A DNA stretch of 64,000 nucleotides. Source: Candidatus Aminicenantes bacterium. GTDB taxonomy: Bacteria; Acidobacteriota; Aminicenantia; Aminicenantales; Saccharicenantaceae. The DNA lies in NCBI GenBank assembly GCA_963809345.1, contig CAWEJF010000013.1, positions 57,155-121,154 on the forward strand. Reading direction: 5' to 3'. The notes under the pieces were generated by a model, which searched no databases, was not told the DNA's origin, and saw only the letters and a program-made list of their open reading frames with translations. Positions within the stretch are counted from its first letter, which is position 1. Every line of letters begins with the position of its first letter. Positions 3,706-45,971 of this stretch are shown here, one piece after another. The translations under genes and the position numbers were made by a program.

Positions 3706-3863
3706 TCGGACGTTCGGCACGACTAACCTTATGGTTTGATTCATATTATTCGAATCGAGGTCAATTGTCCATCGGGAGCGGGTGCTAACTATATGTTGAC
3801 AGCCGCGAGAACCGGTTCGTATAATACCGCCCGGTGGAACTCGATCGACCAAGAGGTGTGACC

Positions 3864-4667
3864 ATGAGTAGAAAACGGGCCTTTTATGCGGGCATCATCC
3901 TCGTCCTCGCCGGCCTGGTCCTGATCGTCCCCGGGCGGCCCTTCGCTCAGGAGGTGCAGGAGAACCAGATCCAGAGGGCGAAGATATTTGCTGAGACCTA
4001 CCAGTTGATCAATGCGTCGGACCTCAACTGCTCGTTCTACATGCATGAGGAAGGCAAGCTCCTCCCCGACATCCAGATCATCGGCGCCGAGCGGATGAAT
4101 GAAAAGAGCGTCTTCGAAGACGGCGACCTCATTTATATCAACAAGGGCGCGGCCGACGGGCTCGAGATAGGCCAGCTGTTCCTCACGGTCGGACTGCGGG
4201 CCAAGGTCGCCAAGCTCGGCACGGTCATGGAGCGCCACGGCCGGGCCCGCATCGTGCGGCTCGACGACCGGATGGCCTCAGCGAGGGTCGAGAAGGGCTG
4301 CGGCACGATCCTCGTCGGCGATTTCCTCCTGCCCTTCGAGGAGGAATCCGGCGAGATCGGCAAGGACCTCGGCTACGGCGACATGGACCCCAACGCCAGC
4401 AAGCATGGCTATGTCGTCTACATCGAGAACGACTTCCACATCTCGGGCTCAGGCCAGTGGGCCTTGATCAACATGGGCCGTCAGCACTGCGTGCAGATCG
4501 GCGACCAGCTCAACATCTTCCACCAGGCCCGCCCGGACCTGCCGCGGGAGGCCTTCGCCAGCGCCATCATCATCGACGTCCGCGGTGCGACCTCGACGAT
4601 CAAGATCCTCGGCGCCCGCGATGCCGTCGACATCGGCGCCGAAGTCCAGATCAACACCGCTCGCTGA
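3864..4667 (+). CDS. Hypothetical membrane-anchored/secreted protein
   Basis: RBS aagagg then ATG at 3864. The N-terminus is a hydrophobic helix (AFYAGIILVLAGLVLIV). Two internally similar G-x-hydrophobic segments are present. No recognisable family. Confidence 0.5.
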   Translation: MSRKRAFYAGIILVLAGLVLIVPGRPFAQEVQENQIQRAKIFAETYQLINASDLNCSFYMHEEGKLLPDIQIIGAERMNEKSVFEDGDLIYINKGAADGLEIGQLFLTVGLRAKVAKLGTVMERHGRARIVRLDDRMASARVEKGCGTILVGDFLLPFEEESGEIGKDLGYGDMDPNASKHGYVVYIENDFHISGSGQWALINMGRQHCVQIGDQLNIFHQARPDLPREAFASAIIIDVRGATSTIKILGARDAVDIGAEVQINTAR

Positions 4668-4752
4668 TCGATCATTCGGGGGCATGCACTCTCCGTGCGT
4701 GTCCCCATTTTTTTGCCTCGGCGGGCAACGCAATAACCCAGGGCGGCGTCGA

Positions 4753-4847
4753 GGCCGCCCATAGGCCCCCGTGATGGAAGGGGGACCCACCGCAGGTGGG
4801 GGAAACCGGATTCGCAGGTTTCCGGGGTGCGGGGGCAAGGGGCGGCC
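4753..4847 (+). repeat. Structured GC-rich repeat element, copy A (core 4765-4836; flanked by a 38-bp perfect inverted repeat 4723-4760 / 4840-4881)
   Basis: Shares the core GCCCCCGTGA..GGGGGACCCNCCGNAGGNGGGGGAAACC(N8-9)GGTTTCCGGGG.GCGGGGGC with copies at 14962-15054, 30602-30700 and 45811-45905 (reverse complement). Paired positions covary between copies. Confidence 0.8.
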
Positions 4848-4962
4848 TCGACGCCGCCCAAAAAGGGTTATTGCGTTGCCCGCAGTAACCTTCATGTGGT
4901 TGACAGCCTATGGCGATTCTGTTAGTTTAGGGCGTGCCGTCCCTCGAGGGAGGGCCGAGCGG

Positions 4963-5037
4963 GCGGGCGTAGTTCAGTGGTAGAACGTCTGCTTGCCATG
5001 CAGAAGGTCGTGGGTTCAAGTCCCATCGCCCGCTCCA
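4963..5037 (+). tRNA. tRNA-Gly (anticodon GCC)
   Basis: Cloverleaf by eye: acceptor GCGGGCG/CGCCCGC, anticodon loop TTGCCAT, T-loop GGTTCAAGTCC, 3' discriminator T then CCA encoded. Confidence 0.85.
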
Positions 5038-5065: not shown

Positions 5066-5141
5066 GGCGCGGTACCCAAGTGGCCAAGGGAGAGGTCTGC
5101 AAAACCTTTATTCGTCGGTTCGAGTCCGACCCGCGCCTCCA
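5066..5141 (+). tRNA. tRNA-Cys (anticodon GCA)
   Basis: Acceptor GGCGCGG/CCGCGCC, anticodon loop CTGCAAA, T-loop GGTTCGAGTCC, CCA encoded. Confidence 0.8.
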
Positions 5142-12129: not shown

Positions 12130-14895
12130 ATGGCCAAGAAGTATGTGTATTTCTTCGGGGCCGGCGCCGCCGAAGGCAACATGAAGATGAAGGACATCCT
12201 CGGCGGCAAGGGCGCCAACCTGGCCGAAATGGCCGGGATCGGCCTGCCCGTCCCCCCGGGGTTCACGATCTCGACCGAGGTCTGCGCGCTCTTCTACAAG
12301 AACCGCGAGAAGGTCCCCGAGGCCGTCCGCCTCGAGGTCGAGAAGAACCTGAAGAAGCTCGAAAAGACCGTCGGCCAGGCCTTCGGCGATCCCAAGAGCC
12401 CCCTGCTCGTCTCCGTCCGCTCCGGCGCCCGGGCCTCCATGCCGGGGATGATGGACACCATCCTCAACCTCGGCCTCAACGACAAGACGGCCGCGGCCCT
12501 GGCCGTCAAGACCGGCAACGACCGCTTCGTCTACGACAGCTACCGCCGGTTCGTCCAGATGTACGGCGACGTCGTCCTCGGCCTCAAGCCCGTCCACAAG
12601 GACGACATCGATCCTTTCGAAGCCATCATCGAACGGAAGAAGCATGAGCTCGGCATCGCCAGCGACACCGACCTCTCGGCCGCCGACCTCAAGGACCTCG
12701 TGTCCCGTTTCAAAGCGGCCATCAAGGCCAAGGCCGGCCGCGATTTCCCCGACGATCCCAAGACGCAGCTCTGGGGCGCGATCGGCGCCGTCTTCGGGTC
12801 GTGGATGAACGACCGGGCTATCGCCTACCGCAAGCTCTACGACATCCCCGAGGCTTGGGGCACGGCCGTCAACGTCCAACTCATGGTCTTCGGCAACATG
12901 GGCAACGACTCGGGCACCGGCGTCGCCTTCACCCGTGACGCGGCCACCGGAGAGAACGTCTTCTACGGCGAGTACCTCATGAACGCCCAGGGCGAGGATG
13001 TCGTCGCGGGCACCCGCACGCCCAAGCCGATCGCCGAGCTGAAGAAGGACGACGCCAAGGCCTACGCCCGGCTCGAGAAGATCCGGCACACGCTCGAAAA
13101 GCACTATACGGACATGATGGACATCGAGTTCACCATCCAGCAGGGCCAGCTCTACATGCTCCAGTGCCGGGTCGGCAAGCGCACGGCCTTCGCCGCGATC
13201 AAGATCGCCGTCGACATGGTCGGCGAAAAGCTCATCGGCGAGAAGGACGCTCTGGCCCGGATCGAGCCGGACCAGCTCAACCAGCTCCTCCGGCCCATCT
13301 TCGATCACGCCGAGAAGGACGCCGCCTTCAAGGGCGGCCGGCTGCTGACCAAAGGCCTCAACGCCGGTCCCGGCGCCGCCACGGGCCGCATCGTCTTCAA
13401 CTCCGTCGACGCCGAGGCCTGGGCCAAGCGAGGCGAGAAGGTCATCCTGACCCGCATCGAGACCTCGCCCGAGGACATCAAGGGCATGAACGCGGCCGAG
13501 GGCATCCTGACCGCCCGCGGCGGCATGACCTCGCACGCCGCCCTCGTCGCCCGTCAGATGGGCCGGGTCTGCGTCGCCGGCTGCGGCGAGCTCCTCATCG
13601 ACTACGCCGCCCACACGATGACCGTCAAGGGCCGGAAGCTCCATGAGGGCGACTGGATCTCGATCGACGGCACGACCGGCCAGGTCATCGAGGGCCAGCT
13701 CAACACCAAGCCCTCCGAGGTCCTCCAGGTCCTGATCGAAAAGAGCCTCGCCCCGGCCAAGGCGCCCGTCTACCAGACCTTCGCCAAGGTCATGTCCTGG
13801 GCCGACAAATACCGGACGCTCAAGATCCGGACCAACGCCGACCAGCCCGACCAGTCGGCCAACGCCGTGGCCTTCGGGGCCGAAGGCATCGGCCTTTGCC
13901 GGACGGAGCACATGTTCTTCGGCGAAGGCAAGATCGGGCCCATGCGCGAGATGATCCTGGCCGACACGCTCGACCAGAGGCGGGCGGCACTGGCCAAGCT
14001 CCTGCCCCTCCAGAGGAAGGATTTCGCCGGCATCTTCGAGGTCATGGCCGGCCGGCCCGTGACCATCCGGACGATCGACCCGCCGCTCCACGAGTTCCTG
14101 CCCCACGAGGAGAAGGAACAGCGCGAGGTCGCGGCCCAGATGGGCATCTCTTTCGAGAAGGTCCGGGAGCGCGTCGATTCGCTCCACGAGTTCAATCCCA
14201 TGCTCGGCTTCCGCGGCTGCCGTCTGGGCATCATCTACCCGGAGATCACCGAGATGCAGGCCCGGGCCATCTTCGAGGCCGCCGCGGCCACGAAGAAGAA
14301 AAAGATCCCGGTCCTGCCCGAGGTCATGATCCCGCTTGTCGGCCACGTCAAGGAGCTCCAGAACCAGGAGAAGCTCGTCCGGGCCACGGCCGAGGCCGTC
14401 ATGAAGGAACAGGGCATCACGTTCGACTACCTCGTCGGGACGATGATCGAGATCCCGCGCGGCGCCATCACGGCCGACGAGATCGCGACCGTGGCCGAGT
14501 TCTTCAGCTTCGGCACGAACGACCTGACCCAGACGACGCTCGGCGTCAGCCGCGACGACGCCGCCCGCTTCCTCGTCCCCTACGTTGAGAAGGAGATCTA
14601 CGCCAAGGACCCGTTCGAGGTCATCGACCGCGATGGCGTCGGCCAGCTCATGCGCATGGCTGTCGAGAGGGGCCGCAAGACGCGGCCGGGGATCAAGCTG
14701 GGCATCTGCGGCGAGCACGGCGGCGAGCCGTCGTCTGTCGAGTTCTGCCACCTCATCGGCCTGAGCTACGTGAGTTGCTCGCCCTTCCGGGTGCCCATCG
14801 CCCGGCTGGCGGCGGCCCGGGCGGCCCTCCTCAACGCGCCCAAGGCCCCGGCAAATAAGGCCGCCAAAGCGAAGAGGCCGGTCCGAAAGCGCTGA
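12130..14895 (+). CDS. ppdK: Pyruvate, phosphate dikinase
   Basis: 921 aa, N-terminus [12 protein letters not shown]...[10 protein letters not shown]. The catalytic His region ([15 protein letters not shown]) and the PEP-utilising C-terminal TIM-barrel motifs are present. Confidence 0.95.
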
Positions 14896-14961
14896 TTTCG
14901 GGCCGATTCCGGTGCTTCTCCCGTCATCATCGGGGAAGTCCGTCGTGAGGCGGCGAGGGAT

Positions 14962-15054
14962 GTCGCTCAAAAGCCCCCGTGAGGGAAGGGGGGCCCGCCG
15001 GAGGCGGGGGAAACCAGCTACAAGGTTTCCGGGGTGCGGGGGCAAGGAGCGATA
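14962..15054 (+). repeat. Structured GC-rich repeat element, copy B (3' of ppdK)
   Basis: Same core as copy A. Termini GGGATGTCGC ... GCGATATCC are shared with copy D. Confidence 0.8.
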
Positions 15055-15141
15055 TCCTGAGCAAAGCCTCTGAGGGAACTTCCTCGATTCCCAGAGAAGC
15101 ACCTTTTTTCCGGTTCGGTTTTTTGATATGGTGAGGTTCGC

Positions 15142-16137
15142 ATGGGCGATCTGCTCAACCTCGTCAAGGTCCTCGTCGGGAAGCGCTTCCCGTTCCAGCT
15201 CATCTTCAGCAACGAATACTGGATGGTCGAGACCGGCAAGCACGTCTTCCCCCTCCAGAAGTACCGGCTCGTCTACGAGAACCTCCTGGCCATGGGCGCG
15301 AAAAAGGAGAATTTCCTCAGGCCCCGGCCGGCCCCGGACGAGGATGTGCTCCTCGTCCACACCTCGCGCTATCTCAAGCGCGTCAAGACGGGCGGCCTGA
15401 GCCCGGCGGAGCTCAAGGCCCTCGAGGTCCGCTATTCGCCCGAGCTCGTCCGCTTCGCCCTTCTTTCGGTCGGCGGGACGGTCCTCACGGCCCGCAAAGC
15501 CATAGAATCGGGCCTGGCCGTGCACCTCGGCGGGGGCTGGCACCATGCCTTCCCCGACCACGGCGAGGGCTTCTGCCTCCTCAACGACGTGGCCGTGGCC
15601 GCGCGCAAGGTCATCGTCGACAAGCTCGCCGAGCGGGTCATGATCGTCGATTGCGATCTCCACCAGGGCAACGGCACGGCCGCCGCGCTCGCCGGCCGGC
15701 CGGAGATCTTCACCTTCTCCATCCACCAGATGGACATCTACCCCACGGAAAAACCCTTGAGTACCCGCGACGTCGGCCTCTGGGCTGGGGACGGCGACGC
15801 CAAGTACCTGACCGAGCTGCGCGCCCACATCCCCAAGATCTACCGGGAGTTCCGGCCGAACCTCGTCATCTACCTGGCAGGCGCCGACCCCTACGAAAAA
15901 GATCAATTGGGGGGCCTGGCCTTGACCAAGGCCGGATTGAAGGAGCGGGACAAGGTCGTCATCGAGAACGCCCGCGGATTGGGGATCCCCGTCGCTGTCG
16001 TCCTGGCCGGTGGCTACGCGCTGGAGATCAAGGACACCGTCGATATCCACCTCAACACGGTCCGCATCGCCCAGCGCGTGCAGAGGATCTACCCCGAGCC
16101 GCCGCCGGGCCCCCCCGTCGTGCGGCGCCCCGTCTGA
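15142..16137 (+). CDS. Histone deacetylase-family amidohydrolase (AcuC/HDAC-like)
   Basis: HDAC class motifs GGGWHHA...GFCLLNDVA...DCDLHQGNG. Confidence 0.8.
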   Translation: MGDLLNLVKVLVGKRFPFQLIFSNEYWMVETGKHVFPLQKYRLVYENLLAMGAKKENFLRPRPAPDEDVLLVHTSRYLKRVKTGGLSPAELKALEVRYSPELVRFALLSVGGTVLTARKAIESGLAVHLGGGWHHAFPDHGEGFCLLNDVAVAARKVIVDKLAERVMIVDCDLHQGNGTAAALAGRPEIFTFSIHQMDIYPTEKPLSTRDVGLWAGDGDAKYLTELRAHIPKIYREFRPNLVIYLAGADPYEKDQLGGLALTKAGLKERDKVVIENARGLGIPVAVVLAGGYALEIKDTVDIHLNTVRIAQRVQRIYPEPPPGPPVVRRPV

Positions 16138-29229: not shown

Positions 29230-30552
29230 ATGTTCGACCAGCTCGCCGGCGGCCTCGGGAAGATGGTGAAGTTCCTCCGGGGCGAGGTCAAGGTCACGGA
29301 CAAGAACATGGCCGAGGCCCTAAAGATGATGCGCCTGGCCTTTCTGGAGGCCGACGTCAACTACAGGGTGGTCAAGGACTTCGAGGCCCGGATCAAGGAG
29401 AAGGCCCTGGGCGAGGAGGTCCTGAACGGACTCAACCCCGCCCAGCAGGTCATCAAGATCGTCCACGACGAGCTCACCGCCATCCTCGGCGGGGCCCGCA
29501 AGCCCCTCCAATTCGCCAGCCGGCCCCCGTCCATCATCATGCTTGTCGGCCTCCAGGGCAGCGGCAAGACGACGACCTGCGGCAAGCTGGCCCGTTGGGT
29601 CTCAGGGATCGGGAAGAACCCCTTGCTCGTCTCCTTCGACCTCAAGAGACCGGCCGCCCAGGACCAGCTGAGGTCGATCGCCGTGGGACTCGGCTTTCCC
29701 TTCTACGAGATGACGGCCATCCGGATGGCTTCCCCGAAGGAGGCCCTGAAGGAGCTCCTGGAGTACACGGCCAACCGCGGGTTCGATCCCCTCATCGTCG
29801 ACACGGCGGGGCGCCTCCACATCGACGACGAGCTCATGGACGAGCTGCGCCTGGTCAAGGATATCCTCAACCCGATCGAGACGATCTACGTCGGCGACGC
29901 CATGACGGGTCAGGACGCCGTGCGCAGCGCCCAGGCTTTCGAGGAGAGGATCGGCCTCACGGCCGTCATCCTGACCAAGCTCGACGGTGACGCCCGGGGC
30001 GGGGCGGCCCTGTCCATCGTCTCCGCGACCGGCCGGCCCATCAAGTTCATCGGCGTCGGCGAAAAGCCCGACAAGCTCGATGTCTTCCATCCTGAGCGCA
30101 TGGCCTCGCGCATCCTGGGCATGGGGGACATCCTGTCGCTTGTTGAGAAGGCCCAGGACCAGGCCGACGTCGCCGAGGCCGAGGAGATGGCCCGCAAGCT
30201 CCGCAAGCAGGAGTTCACCCTCGAGGATTTCAGGAAGCAGATCGTCCAGATGAAGAGAATGGGCTCGCTCACGGACCTCCTGGGCCATCTTCCCCAGGTG
30301 GGCCCCTTCAAGGCCCTGGGCAAGGCCCAGGTCGACGAGGGAAGGATCGCCCACTTCGCGGCCATCATCGATTCCATGACCCCAGAGGAGCGGGCCGACC
30401 CGCGGCTGCTGAACGGCAGCCGCCGGGCCCGCATCTCCCGAGGCAGCGGCCGGCCGGTGCACGAGATCAATCAGCTGGTCAAGCAATTTCTGGAAATGCG
30501 GAAGATGATGAAGCGCGCCTCGGTCCAGAAGCTCTTCGACGGCCTAAGATAG
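29230..30552 (+). CDS. ffh: Signal recognition particle protein Ffh
   Basis: N/G domain (GLQGSGKTTT, DTAGR, TKLDGD) plus a Met-rich M domain. Start chosen at MFDQLAGGL. Confidence 0.9.
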   Translation: MFDQLAGGLGKMVKFLRGEVKVTDKNMAEALKMMRLAFLEADVNYRVVKDFEARIKEKALGEEVLNGLNPAQQVIKIVHDELTAILGGARKPLQFASRPPSIIMLVGLQGSGKTTTCGKLARWVSGIGKNPLLVSFDLKRPAAQDQLRSIAVGLGFPFYEMTAIRMASPKEALKELLEYTANRGFDPLIVDTAGRLHIDDELMDELRLVKDILNPIETIYVGDAMTGQDAVRSAQAFEERIGLTAVILTKLDGDARGGAALSIVSATGRPIKFIGVGEKPDKLDVFHPERMASRILGMGDILSLVEKAQDQADVAEAEEMARKLRKQEFTLEDFRKQIVQMKRMGSLTDLLGHLPQVGPFKALGKAQVDEGRIAHFAAIIDSMTPEERADPRLLNGSRRARISRGSGRPVHEINQLVKQFLEMRKMMKRASVQKLFDGLR

Positions 30553-30601
30553 ATTCTTGTTCTTCCTGCTTCCAGACAGATTTCCTTTCAAGGCGGCGAG
30601 G

Positions 30602-30700
30602 GAATTCGCCTCGCAGATCCCCGTCCGTGGAGGGGGGACCCGCGCAGCGGGGGGAACCGGACGACTGGTTCCCGGGGGGCCGGGGAGCTAGAGGCGATTC
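30602..30700 (+). repeat. Structured GC-rich repeat element, copy C (3' of ffh)
   Basis: Same three-helix core with compensatory substitutions. Outer stem GAATTCGCCTC / GAGGCGATTC. Confidence 0.75.
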
Positions 30701-30725
30701 CCGAGCGAAGCCGTAGAGAGGAAAT

Positions 30726-31517
30726 CTAGCGTCCTTCGAGGACCTGCTCCACGCACTCGAGCCAGAAAGCGGCGTAGTCCTCCCAGAAGACGAAGTTCAG
30801 CCCCCAGTGCGGGGCGGGGTCGGACATGTAGGCGAGGACGTGGCCCCGGCCGCAGCTCCGGAGGGCCAAGAGGGGGTCGCCCGAATCCCGGACCTCGAGG
30901 AGGACCCGGCCCTCGGGAATGGCCATCGTCTTGTTGTAACCCAGGATGGGCGGCATCGTCCGGAGGTTGATCGACTTGAAGAAGCGCTCGCCGGCGGCCG
31001 TGAGCTCGGCATCGAAGCCCTCCGTGCTCTCCACGAGGTCCTCGTGGTCGAGGCAGCGGACCGGCAGGACCTCCCGCAGCCGCGTGCGGCCCCAGCCGCC
31101 CTTGCCCAGCTCACCGGTGAAGGAGTACCAGCCGCCGAGGAACATGGCCGATTTGCCTTCCTTGATGGCCTCGACGGTCAGCCGGATCCGGTCCGGATAC
31201 GTCAGGACGGCCTTCCCGAACTTCTCGCGGTCGAAAAAATTCGGGGCCAGCTGGAAGAGCTTGGCGTCGACGTCGCTGAAGATGAGGACGTCGTAGTCGG
31301 CGAGAATGCGCTCATAATCCCCCGGGCCGAGGTGGTTGTAGAAGTCCCAGGCCGCGACGGACTCGACCTGGTGCTTCCCGGTCGATTCCAGGGCGTCCTT
31401 CAGCCACTTGCCGTAATTGACGATGTCGAGGCCCTTGGGCGAGTGATAGAATGGCGTCTCGGCGAACACGGGGCCGGTCAGGACCGCCCAATCGCCGACA
31501 TAGTAAATCTTGGCCAT
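30726..31517 (-). CDS. Hypothetical cytoplasmic protein (possibly GATase1-like fold)
   Basis: Start MAKIYYVGDW preceded by GGAGA. No confident family assignment. Confidence 0.45.
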   Translation of the reverse strand: MAKIYYVGDWAVLTGPVFAETPFYHSPKGLDIVNYGKWLKDALESTGKHQVESVAAWDFYNHLGPGDYERILADYDVLIFSDVDAKLFQLAPNFFDREKFGKAVLTYPDRIRLTVEAIKEGKSAMFLGGWYSFTGELGKGGWGRTRLREVLPVRCLDHEDLVESTEGFDAELTAAGERFFKSINLRTMPPILGYNKTMAIPEGRVLLEVRDSGDPLLALRSCGRGHVLAYMSDPAPHWGLNFVFWEDYAAFWLECVEQVLEGR

Positions 31518-38773: not shown

Positions 38774-40012
38774 TCAGGCGCCGACGTGGACGAGGTCCTT
38801 GACCTTCTTGAAGACCTCGAGCACCCGGTCGACCTGCGCGTCCGTATGCGTCGCCATGTAGCTCGTCCGCAGGCACGAGAACTCCGGCGTGACGGAGGGC
38901 GGCAGGGCGACGTTGGTGTAGATGCCTTCCGCGAAGAAGATCTTCCAGGCCTCGATGGCCTTCATCATGTCGCCGATCACGATGGGGATGATGGGTGTTT
39001 CGCTCTCGCCGATGTTGTAGCCCATGGCCCGGAGCTCGCCTCTGACCCGAGCCGCGATCGTGTTGACCCGCGCGACGCGTTCCGGTTCCGCTTCGAGGAT
39101 GTCGAGGCAGGCCAGGACCGTGGCCACGTTCGAAGGCGGCAGGCTGGCGCTGAACATGAACGGCCGGGCGAACATCTGGATGAAGTGGACGGCCTCCTTG
39201 GGGCCGGCGATGAAGCCGCCGACCGAGGCGAGGGACTTGCTGAACGTGCCCATGACCAGGTCGACGTCCTTCTGGAGACCGAAGTGCCAGCCCGTACCCC
39301 GGCCGCCGCCGAGGACGCCGATGGCGTGGGCGTCATCCGACATGAACCGGGCGCCGTACTTTCGGCAAAGGGGGATGATCTCGGGCAGCTTGGCGATGTC
39401 GCCGCCCATGCTGAAGACGCCGTCGACGATGACGAGCTTGGCCGGCTCGGACGGCAGGGACTTCAGGACGGCCTCGAGATCGGCCATGTCGTTGTGCTTG
39501 TAGTAGCGGGTTTGGACGTTCTTGACGGCCTTGGCCATGCGAACGCCGTCGATGATGCTGGCGTGGACTTCTCTATCGGTGATGATGATGTCGTCTTTGT
39601 CCATGATGGCCGGGATCGTGCCCAGGTTGACCTGGAAGCCGGTGCTGAAGACGAGGGCCGCCTCCATGCCGACGTACTTGGCCAGCCGCGCCTCGAGCTC
39701 GATGTGGAGGTCGAGGGTGCCGTTGAGGAAGCGCGAGCCGGTGCAGCTCGTGCCGTACTTCCTGACGGCCTCGATGGCCGCTTCCTTGACCTTGGGGTGG
39801 TTGGTCAGCCCGACATAGTTGTTCGAGCCGATCATGATGAACTTCTGGCCGTGGATGTAGACCTCGGTGCCCTCGGCGTGCTCGATGGGGATGAAGTAGG
39901 GGAAGAGGCCCATGGCCTGGGCGGTCCGGGGGTTGAGGGGATAACCGTATTTCTGGGCGACCACGGGGTCGGAGTAGAAGCCGATACATTTCTCGAAAAG
40001 GTCCATTTTCAC
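38774..40012 (-). CDS. PLP-dependent alpha-oxoamine synthase family acyltransferase (Kbl/BioF/serine palmitoyltransferase-like)
   Basis: Fold-type I PLP enzyme with GTFSKS (Lys) and HAS...DG motifs characteristic of the AONS/KBL/SPT family. Confidence 0.8.
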   Translation of the reverse strand: MKMDLFEKCIGFYSDPVVAQKYGYPLNPRTAQAMGLFPYFIPIEHAEGTEVYIHGQKFIMIGSNNYVGLTNHPKVKEAAIEAVRKYGTSCTGSRFLNGTLDLHIELEARLAKYVGMEAALVFSTGFQVNLGTIPAIMDKDDIIITDREVHASIIDGVRMAKAVKNVQTRYYKHNDMADLEAVLKSLPSEPAKLVIVDGVFSMGGDIAKLPEIIPLCRKYGARFMSDDAHAIGVLGGGRGTGWHFGLQKDVDLVMGTFSKSLASVGGFIAGPKEAVHFIQMFARPFMFSASLPPSNVATVLACLDILEAEPERVARVNTIAARVRGELRAMGYNIGESETPIIPIVIGDMMKAIEAWKIFFAEGIYTNVALPPSVTPEFSCLRTSYMATHTDAQVDRVLEVFKKVKDLVHVGA

Positions 40013-40100
40013 GTCCTTTGGGAGGATTTCCGGCCCTCAGTATAGAATTCCCGGCGGGATTAGTCAATTTTCGGGAGGAAAATGGGGACGCTTCTGTTTT

Positions 40101-45760: not shown

Positions 45761-45810
45761 GGTTCTGCCCCCGTTTCCGGCCCAGGCATCTCTTCGGCTA
45801 CGCAACGGAT

Positions 45811-45905
45811 ATCGCCCCTGGCCCCCGCGCCCCGGAAACCTGCGAATCCGGTTTCCCCCGCCTCCGGCGGGTCCCCCTTCCATCACGGGGTCTTTGGGGC
45901 GACAT
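45811..45905 (-). repeat. Structured GC-rich repeat element, copy D (reverse orientation)
   Basis: Its reverse complement is nearly identical to copies A and B, including termini GGGATGTCGC...GCGATATCC. Confidence 0.8.
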
Positions 45906-45971
45906 CCCTTGCCGCCTCACGATGGCCTTTCCCGGAAACGGGAGTTTAGCCGGAAATAGGCGAGGCGGGCC

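Follow-up and report, generated by a model that had tools for sequence, protein, structure and literature searches.

Several described repeats and insertion sequences (ISs) resemble, each in part, the GC-rich repeat of Candidatus Aminicenantes that is analysed here. The bcr1 repeats of the Bacillus cereus group are MITE-like, generate duplications in A/T-rich targets and carry compensatory changes that keep a predicted RNA structure, and a role at the RNA level has been proposed for them; they differ from the present family by the phylum of their host, their sequence, their terminal inverted repeats (TIRs) and their parent transposase. The REP/REPIN sequences are also GC-rich extragenic palindromes located 3' of genes, with hairpins that display paired changes, but neither REP/REPINs nor attC sites show an 8-bp target-site duplication or TIRs of the DDE type. 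Correia/NEMIS, ERIC and the pneumococcal BOX, RUP and SPRITE elements, which like QMITE2 are bacterial MITEs giving long stem-loop transcripts, are intergenic like the family described below and, again like it, SPRITE is associated with terminators. The architecture of QMITE2 from Coxiella, which has 7-9-bp direct repeats, 23-29-bp TIRs and a ~110-145-bp core forming a very stable hairpin, matches that of the Aminicenantes element (PMC10969869). Among ISs, ISL3 elements generate 8-bp direct repeats and show a preference for AT-rich DNA (PMC3469429). Members such as IS31831, IS1411, IS1001, IS1096 and IS1165 are comparable to the present family in their termini starting with GG, their 8-bp repeats and their AT-rich targets; however, the interior of the Aminicenantes element is unrelated to them, GC-rich and highly structured, and what is in common is restricted to 21-23 nt per end.

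The repeats are very probably the hairpin core of a ~190-bp non-coding MITE mobilised by an ISL3 transposase in Aminicenantes. Indeed, the element is small, non-coding and multi-copy, carries TIRs, is flanked by target-site duplications and has an autonomous partner with the same termini. Its family is new, but the kind of element is ordinary and well known. While MITEs are typically AT-rich, this one, with a G+C content of about 68-72%, a branched core that outlasts the TIRs, several interchangeable modules within the same frame of TIRs and arms, and a targeting of terminators, is unusual. As no link between Aminicenantes and MITEs was found in the literature searched, it would be the first MITE family described for this abundant uncultivated lineage of sediments and subsurface, and one that can be tied to a specific ISL3 IS.

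The window, i.e. the whole 64-kb stretch of DNA that was analysed (65% G+C), had been reported in a preliminary description to contain four copies of a ~90-nt structured element. All four copies, hereafter A to D, are present where they had been placed. The core pattern CCCCGTNNNNGNAGGGGGN{1,2}CCCRC matches the window exactly four times (0 expected from 100 shuffles), and a profile HMM and a covariance model (CM) each recover the same number, the CM scores being 145.4 bits for B, 136.2 for D, 111.3 for A and 77.6 for C. All four copies have predicted folds far more stable than those of shuffled sequences, with z values of -10.1 (copy A), -5.5, -3.0 and -5.1; the opposite strand folds nearly as stably. 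The helices originally quoted exist as written except for the closing one: CCCCCG/CGGGGG, said to close all copies, does so in A and B, but C has (T)CCCCG/CGGGG(A) and D has (A)CCCCG/CGGGG. Two other statements have to be corrected. The outer stem, thought to be completely different in each copy, is one consensus arm in B, C and D (GAGGCGGCGAgGGATgTCGCyc / grGGCGATATCC, with few compensatory differences), and only A has an arm of another type. Furthermore, the ~90 nt taken for the entire element are the central part of a ~190-bp unit.

Once the flanks of the genome copies are extended, the full unit measures 187-193 bp. Its successive parts, starting outside, are a TIR and a short variable stem, then a conserved arm (GAGGCGGCGAkGGATrTCGCC), a core of ~70 nt, the complementary arm and the inverted TIR. 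The TIRs are 21-23 nt long (left GGTTCTTCTCCCATTTCCGGGAA, right TTCCCGGAATCGGGAGAAGAACC, also written GGTTCTTCTCCCATTTCCGGG... / ...CCCGGAATCGGGAGAAGAACC) and, among the matches listed, 16 of the 58 genome copies have kept both of them. The core comprises the helix P1, a purine-rich junction J1/2 (GU-NNN-GGARGGGGG), the hairpins P2 and P3 and the junction J3/1 (GGGG). According to the structural model, this internal module would be a GC-rich three-way junction placed atop a long stem made of the arms and TIRs. The cores of A, B and D are of type 1 and that of C of type 2; a type 3 (GTAGCGGA in J1/2) and further variants are found elsewhere.

Within the window, the TIRs display all stages from intact to missing; the coordinates given here for the copies are palindrome limits, approximate for A, B and C. 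Copy B (14911-15103, + strand, 193 bp) is the sole full-length MITE. It consists of a left TIR (GGTGCTTCTCCC...), the arms, a core at 14973-15043 and a right TIR (...CAGAGAAGCACC), directly followed by a T-tract (15104-15109), and it matches positions 2-191 of the full-element HMM with E = 1.4e-45. L032 and L097 share with copy B the unusual GAGAAGCACC end and the right flank, and are therefore orthologous copies. Copy D (45761-45951, - strand, 191 bp, core 45821-45891) matches HMM positions 4-190 (E = 3.9e-37) and has degenerate TIRs (GGCTAAACTCCCGTTTCCGGGAA ... GGGGGCAGAACC); its flanking 8-mers, CTATTTCC and TTATTTCT, share 6 of 8 bases and are a decayed target-site duplication. Copy C (30558-30727, + strand, core 30618-30686, HMM positions 6-169) retains a degenerate left TIR (TGTTCTTCCTGC...) and has lost the right one. 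It occupies the entire 173-nt spacer between two convergent genes assigned by Pfam, ffh (stop at 30552) and a GATase1-like gene (stop at 30726).

Copy A (4715-4890, + strand, core 4765-4836) is a divergent member. It has no recognisable ISL3 TIR and matches the HMM in the core region only (positions 44-139). Its arms are longer and of another type (GGGCGGCGTCGAGGCCGCCC / GGGCGGCCTCGACGCCGCCC), with an additional outer stem of 19 bp, and its predicted fold reaches -104.8 kcal/mol; the copy L029 has arms of the same type with a different outer stem. The gene upstream (3834-4667) has an intrinsic terminator, read from the sequence at 4678-4714 (+ strand) as a hairpin, GGGGGCATGCAC-TCTCC-GTGCGTGTCCCC, followed by T7, and copy A begins immediately 3' of its T-tract. 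Such a T-tract is a typical target of the family. The copy sits between this canonical terminator and a pair of tRNA genes, tRNA-Gly (4963-5037) and tRNA-Cys (5066-5141). Each arm on its own also forms a small palindrome (GGGCGGC-N6-GCCGCCC), which makes a cruciform or an alternative fold with three hairpins possible.

Taken alone, these four copies provide arguments against a MITE, since only B has both TIRs reasonably intact, the duplications are weak (6/8 for D, 4/8 for B) and no ISL3 transposase gene was detected in the window by tblastn. A metagenome scan by the terminal repeat alone, blind to the core, gave 84 loci corresponding to 73 distinct sites. These include 17 canonical elements of ~190 bp, 12 long variants of 295-335 bp, whose P2 and P3 are replaced by another palindromic module of ~200 nt, 6 short core-less derivatives (75-108 bp), shortened copies and two autonomous elements. 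The long class (L123, L125, L130, L136, L147, L170 and others, as well as L014:5060-5230 and L056:2572-2876) has the same TIRs and arms as the MITE, carries the module GGAGCGGAGTCTTCGAAGCGACC... in place of P2/P3 and is flanked by perfect 8-bp duplications such as GAACTTTT and TTTTCTTA. The presence of another module of ~200 nt inside the same TIRs and arms indicates that the internal modules are interchangeable. Conversely, the core is found within arms devoid of recognisable TIRs in copy A, L029 and L111.

The parent IS was absent from the loci found by the core pattern and came from the scan with the TIR. The two autonomous ISs (L163:608-1944, 1337 bp, and L155:3610-4955, minus strand, 1.34 kb) have MITE-type termini and encode an ISL3 transposase. 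They display 73% DNA identity, their transposases being 71.5% identical. Both start with the 21-nt left TIR identical to that of the MITE and have a matching right TIR, which includes the stop codon of the 410-aa transposase ORF. This ORF matches DDE_Tnp_ISL3 (PF01610) with 200 bits for a cut-off of 23, as well as the HTH_Tnp_ISL3 and Zn_ribbon_ISL3 domains (PF13542, 49.5 bits; PF14690, 45.1 bits). With its three transposase domains, 8-bp duplications and AT-rich targets, the parent IS shows the features of an ISL3 element that were examined. The similarity between MITE and IS is limited to the 21-23-nt ends. As the ISs carry the same termini and an ISL3 transposase, the element can be described as an ISL3-derived MITE. 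Both ISs come from metagenome contigs that are unbinned; their link with the genome of the window therefore rests on the identical 21-nt terminus, a similar G+C content and the presence of a MITE on the L155 contig, about 800 bp away from this IS. The two ISs seem to be undescribed, the literature searched containing no description of a particular ISL3 IS associated with the Aminicenantes host lineage, and, judging from their sequences, they are likely the drivers of the MITE family.

The duplications of the target were examined on the 42 two-ended elements found by their TIRs. The 8-mers on either side agree at 5.62 of 8 bases, versus 3.33 +/- 0.24 (maximum 4.14) in 2000 permutations of the flank pairs, and are composed of 87% A+T. 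Perfect 8-bp duplications flank 9 of the 42 elements, and those that are not homopolymers include TAAAATTT, GAACTTTT, TTTTCTTA and TTTTATTC. Some elements are bordered by an A-run on both sides (L033, L036, L078), others by a T-run on both sides (L040, L103, L086) or by a mixed sequence (TGAAATT, L099). Since the same run is found on both sides, A with A or T with T, the flanks are direct repeats lying outside the hairpin.

These features bear on another possible reading, that of a REP/REPIN moved by a tyrosine transposase of the RAYT type (IS200/IS605-like), or of an integron attC-like site. The element is indeed a GC-rich extragenic palindrome with many copies 3' of genes, and GTAG lies beside the hairpin in type-3 cores. 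However, 8-bp duplications are present, the 21-23-bp TIRs are also those of an element with a DDE transposase, the copies are scattered between housekeeping genes instead of forming cassette arrays, and a REP is far shorter and less branched than this unit. Given the target-site duplications, the TIRs and the ISL3 partner, this reading was rejected as extremely improbable.

Many insertions are found at the distal end of a hairpin followed by a T-run (L103, L040, L095, L090), or of such a structure carried by the other strand (L036, L033, L171, L174). In a set of 29 distinct elements whose duplications are T- or A-rich, the folding energy of the adjacent 40 nt is -16.6 kcal/mol on the side where the stem is expected, versus -12.0 kcal/mol on the other side (Wilcoxon p = 0.019), and a fold of -18 kcal/mol or below is found on 15 of the 29 expected sides versus 3 of the 29 other sides. 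The location of the copies just 3' of genes can therefore be explained, because terminator T-tracts are the richest source of A/T 8-mers in a genome with 65% G+C; such tracts would offer safe landing sites to a GC-rich transposon. Copies inserted in T-tracts end as a hairpin followed by a T-run (L040, L103 and B, with T6), whereas those with A-tract or mixed duplications do not.

The gene environment of 58 copies among the matches listed was determined with a crude GC3-based gene caller. Twenty-four lie between convergent genes, 10 between tandem genes in sense and 8 in antisense orientation, and 5 are flanked by divergent genes. The element has a gene 3' end turned towards it in 35 cases on the 5' side and in 39 cases on the 3' side. 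With respect to the T-tract that was targeted, the two orientations are similarly balanced (7 versus 5). An orientation bias was thus rejected: the family has a preference for 3' ends without preference for orientation. In the preliminary description, every copy was said to lie 3' of a gene of the same orientation. This is true for the four copies of the window but not for the family (35 sense, 39 antisense), and four out of four is unremarkable. The lack of bias relative to genes and T-tracts argues against a strand-specific role as RNA. Among the readings initially proposed, the REP/MITE-like one holds, in the form of a MITE with TIRs, 8-bp duplications and an ISL3 partner, while that of a gene-oriented RNA element does not.

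Globally, the following scheme may be proposed for the ISL3-derived MITE. An ISL3-family DDE transposase would act in trans on the 21-23-bp TIRs, a mobilisation deduced here from sequence comparisons, and would insert the element into 8-bp A/T-rich targets that become duplicated. Copies would accumulate 3' of genes, mostly between convergent genes, through their insertion in terminator T-tracts. The GC-rich internal module does not derive from the IS itself, and if the hairpin acted on the host as a terminator or insulator, this would be a secondary consequence.

Beyond the window, the expectation that further copies would exist was borne out, since at least 60 strong CM matches were obtained in ~20 species-level genomes. 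From a scan with the core pattern, using one genome per species, true copies number at least 60, in at least ~20 assemblies that are essentially all Candidatus Aminicenantes; the remaining matches, for example in Streptomyces, correspond to the short pattern only. The HDAC-like protein encoded in the window is 84-93% identical to proteins labelled Aminicenantes or Aminicenantales, which places the window in this lineage. In ~60 kb from three other Aminicenantes genomes, almost no copies were found, which indicates that the copy load is very uneven between lineages. Typical copies also occur in MAGs labelled 'uncultured Eubacteriales' (L010, L074, L099), and a MAG labelled Candidatus Desulfaltia (L037:424-690, L089:7720-7870) contains, within AT-rich flanks, type-3 cores whose P2 is extended by an insert of ~165 nt; either these bins bear a wrong label or the element has passed from one lineage to another.

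As viral contigs contain one stray match to the core pattern and none to the TIR pattern, and plasmids gave no blastn match to the element, a phage or plasmid origin was rejected. The comparison with Rfam, from which a known family might have emerged, left the element without a match: at gathering level two tRNAs alone pass in the whole window, and a permissive scan (E <= 10) of 4600-4960 returned chance-level matches only (E >= 0.2). A known RNA family was thus rejected. Resemblances noticed by eye to hammerhead, HDV-like and twister ribozymes were dropped, being restricted to one subtype or devoid of Rfam support, as was a resemblance to the ACGR loop of guanidine-II, confined to P3 of type 2. 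Besides the tRNAs mentioned above, ARAGORN proposes in the window (39010-39105) a 96-nt 'tRNA-???' with a four-base anticodon, located within a long ORF (38774-40036, minus strand); Rfam makes no tRNA call there and this prediction is probably a false positive.

Several loci illustrate the mobility of the element. Near-identical copies with different flanks coexist in one genome (L033, L040, L086). At L018:4096-4368, a MITE is nested in another one, with 273 bp between the outer TIRs, and at L071:3284-3602 two copies follow each other in direct tandem at a distance of 165 nt, their flanks being duplicated. Short core-less derivatives (L182, L141) have perfect duplications, a deletion by microhomology fuses P2 to the right terminus at L062:1354-1450, and another module has taken the place of the core in L014 and L056. 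At the position of copy B, upstream of the HDAC-like gene, L105 carries no copy and L108:9817-9912 carries a different, core-deleted copy ~70 nt away; the surrounding gene order differs too, so that L105 is not a clean empty site. This junction between the pyruvate phosphate dikinase and HDAC-like genes (14895-15142) appears as a rearrangement hot spot when compared with L105:1500-10001 and L111:6779-10001. One of the relatives harbours there FtsH, TetR and an RND efflux operon and another one GFO_IDH and ThuA, while the window has the MITE alone; MITE remnants are present at the edges of the junction (L105 near 1560 and L108:9817-9912).

The fate of the element after insertion can be followed in four species (L001, L028, L067, L091) in which both flanks are in common, and which therefore carry one orthologous insertion. 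The mean pairwise identity is 0.38 in the neutral spacer, 0.45-0.49 in the outer arms and TIRs, 0.56-0.69 in the unpaired loops, 0.75-0.78 in the inner arms, 0.93 in the flanking coding sequence and 0.91-1.00 in the core stems and junctions. Unlike the loops, the unpaired J1/2 does not drift. TIRs at 45-49% for a core at 91-100% do not fit a purely selfish MITE: a core outlasting the TIRs is the opposite of what such an element should display, as the TIRs would then be the constrained part.

The core (P1, J1/2, P2 and P3) could accordingly be viewed as a functional RNA or DNA module, exapted by the host and kept by purifying selection at many loci, with a role as terminator, insulator, 3'-end stabiliser or platform for protein binding, the MITE merely ensuring its distribution. 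This reading concerns the fate of the copies after insertion and is compatible with a MITE origin. Its best argument is the conservation of the core at the four-species insertion, compared with that of the TIRs and of the spacer, together with the constancy of J1/2 next to drifting loops. Furthermore, the architecture is kept across subtypes despite different sequences and a variable length of P2 (up to the insert of ~165 nt of L037), the core is found within several unrelated closing stems, G.U pairs exceed A.C pairs (38 to 23), and copy C makes up the whole spacer between two convergent genes. However, the orientation is unbiased relative to gene ends (35 versus 39), in tandem contexts (10 versus 8) and relative to T-tracts (7 versus 5), many copies lie beyond an intact terminator, derivatives with a deleted or replaced core persist with their duplications, and three related genomes are nearly free of copies in 60 kb. 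In addition, L091, from the four-species group, and L097, from the group of copy B, both carry the indel signature GGGGA[AT]GCGAGG that typifies the copies of their own genomes, and L097 does so although it shares the unusual right terminus of copy B. This implies gene conversion between dispersed copies, or re-insertion, rather than constraint in situ, and homogenisation by conversion would preferentially affect the core, the segment in which the copies are most alike. Considering all these data, exaptation seems unlikely. The more specific proposal that the ~70-nt core has been domesticated, i.e. that the host keeps it near invariant at fixed loci after the decay of the TIRs, is judged rather improbable as well; such a core might serve as a portable terminator or insulator active in both directions, as a hairpin protecting 3' ends, or as a protein-binding or G-quadruplex site. 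If domestication were true, an ISL3 transposon would be the source of a regulatory or structural element spread over the genomes of a whole uncultivated class. Under the preferred reading, that of an ISL3-mobilised MITE, we infer that the complementarity of the stems and the conservation of the core result from selection on the element itself plus gene conversion among copies.

The covariation of the stems was evaluated with a CM built from 34 type-1 copies and a hand-set structure, to which 63 matches were aligned (62 distinct rows, from about 20 Aminicenantes genomes among the matches listed). A consensus computed by RNAalifold on a MAFFT alignment was set aside, as it mispaired the 5' C-run with the G-run of J1/2. 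In the 62 distinct copies, 95.5% of the cells show standard pairing and 24 of the 37 pairs display two-sided changes. The compensatory substitutions claimed at the outset are thereby found on a larger set: 142 cells are changed on both sides, versus 29 +/- 4 after shuffling and 11-29 in controls with slid 3' partners, for the 62 distinct copies among the matches listed. As the alignment was fitted to the model, these figures lean towards structure; the effect is nevertheless large. It is unevenly distributed, since two-sided variation affects each of the 12 pairs of the arm helix (92% pairing), whereas in the core it concerns 4 pairs in P1, 1 in P2 and 2 in P3, where the two-sided changes are largely differences between subfamilies counted repeatedly. 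The counts of G.U and A.C pairs (38 versus 23) are too close to decide which strand is functional. The initial proposal that covariation reflects selection on the structure of RNA or DNA therefore stands as plausible, not proven, the small G.U excess providing little in favour of RNA.

The complementarity could also be kept by the correction of palindromes or by gene conversion. More generally, it is possible, and less probable than not in our opinion, that neutral processes acting on quasi-palindromic DNA, such as template switching, mismatch correction in an extruded hairpin or gene conversion, added to the inheritance of subfamilies from master copies, suffice to explain it without selection on structure. 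Both strands fold almost equally well, the excess of G.U over A.C is weak, subfamily differences are counted repeatedly (18 sequences for one pair of P3, 11 for one pair of P1) and orthologous sites bear signs of conversion, all of which agree with such processes. By contrast, the two-sided variation of the entire arm helix is less easily accounted for in this way, as are the three compensatory states found at the same stem positions in the four orthologous arms (AGTCC/GGACT, GGTCC/GGACC and ACTCC/GGAGT). The family offers a clean case in which selection, gene conversion and exaptation can be weighed as causes of the hairpin covariation and core conservation of a MITE.

The identification of the ISL3-derived MITE removes, or at least re-labels, a candidate 'novel structured RNA'. 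It can also be used for genome annotation, for checks of MAG binning and for strain typing, and explains assembly breaks at repeats.

Two minor observations concern the core itself. Every core subtype contains four runs of at least four G, located in J1/2, the 3' strand of P2, J3/1 and the 3' strand of P1 (for example at 14973-15043), and this sequence could conceivably form a G-quadruplex in competition with the hairpin fold. Lastly, several independent truncations or interruptions of the element end at or beside P2 (L002, L044:933-1017, L058:196-270, L102:365-428, L149), including the ~1 kb that carries a gene for an AraC-type regulator and splits the left and right halves of a copy at L002:5473-6690; P2 may be a hot spot of breakage or recombination.
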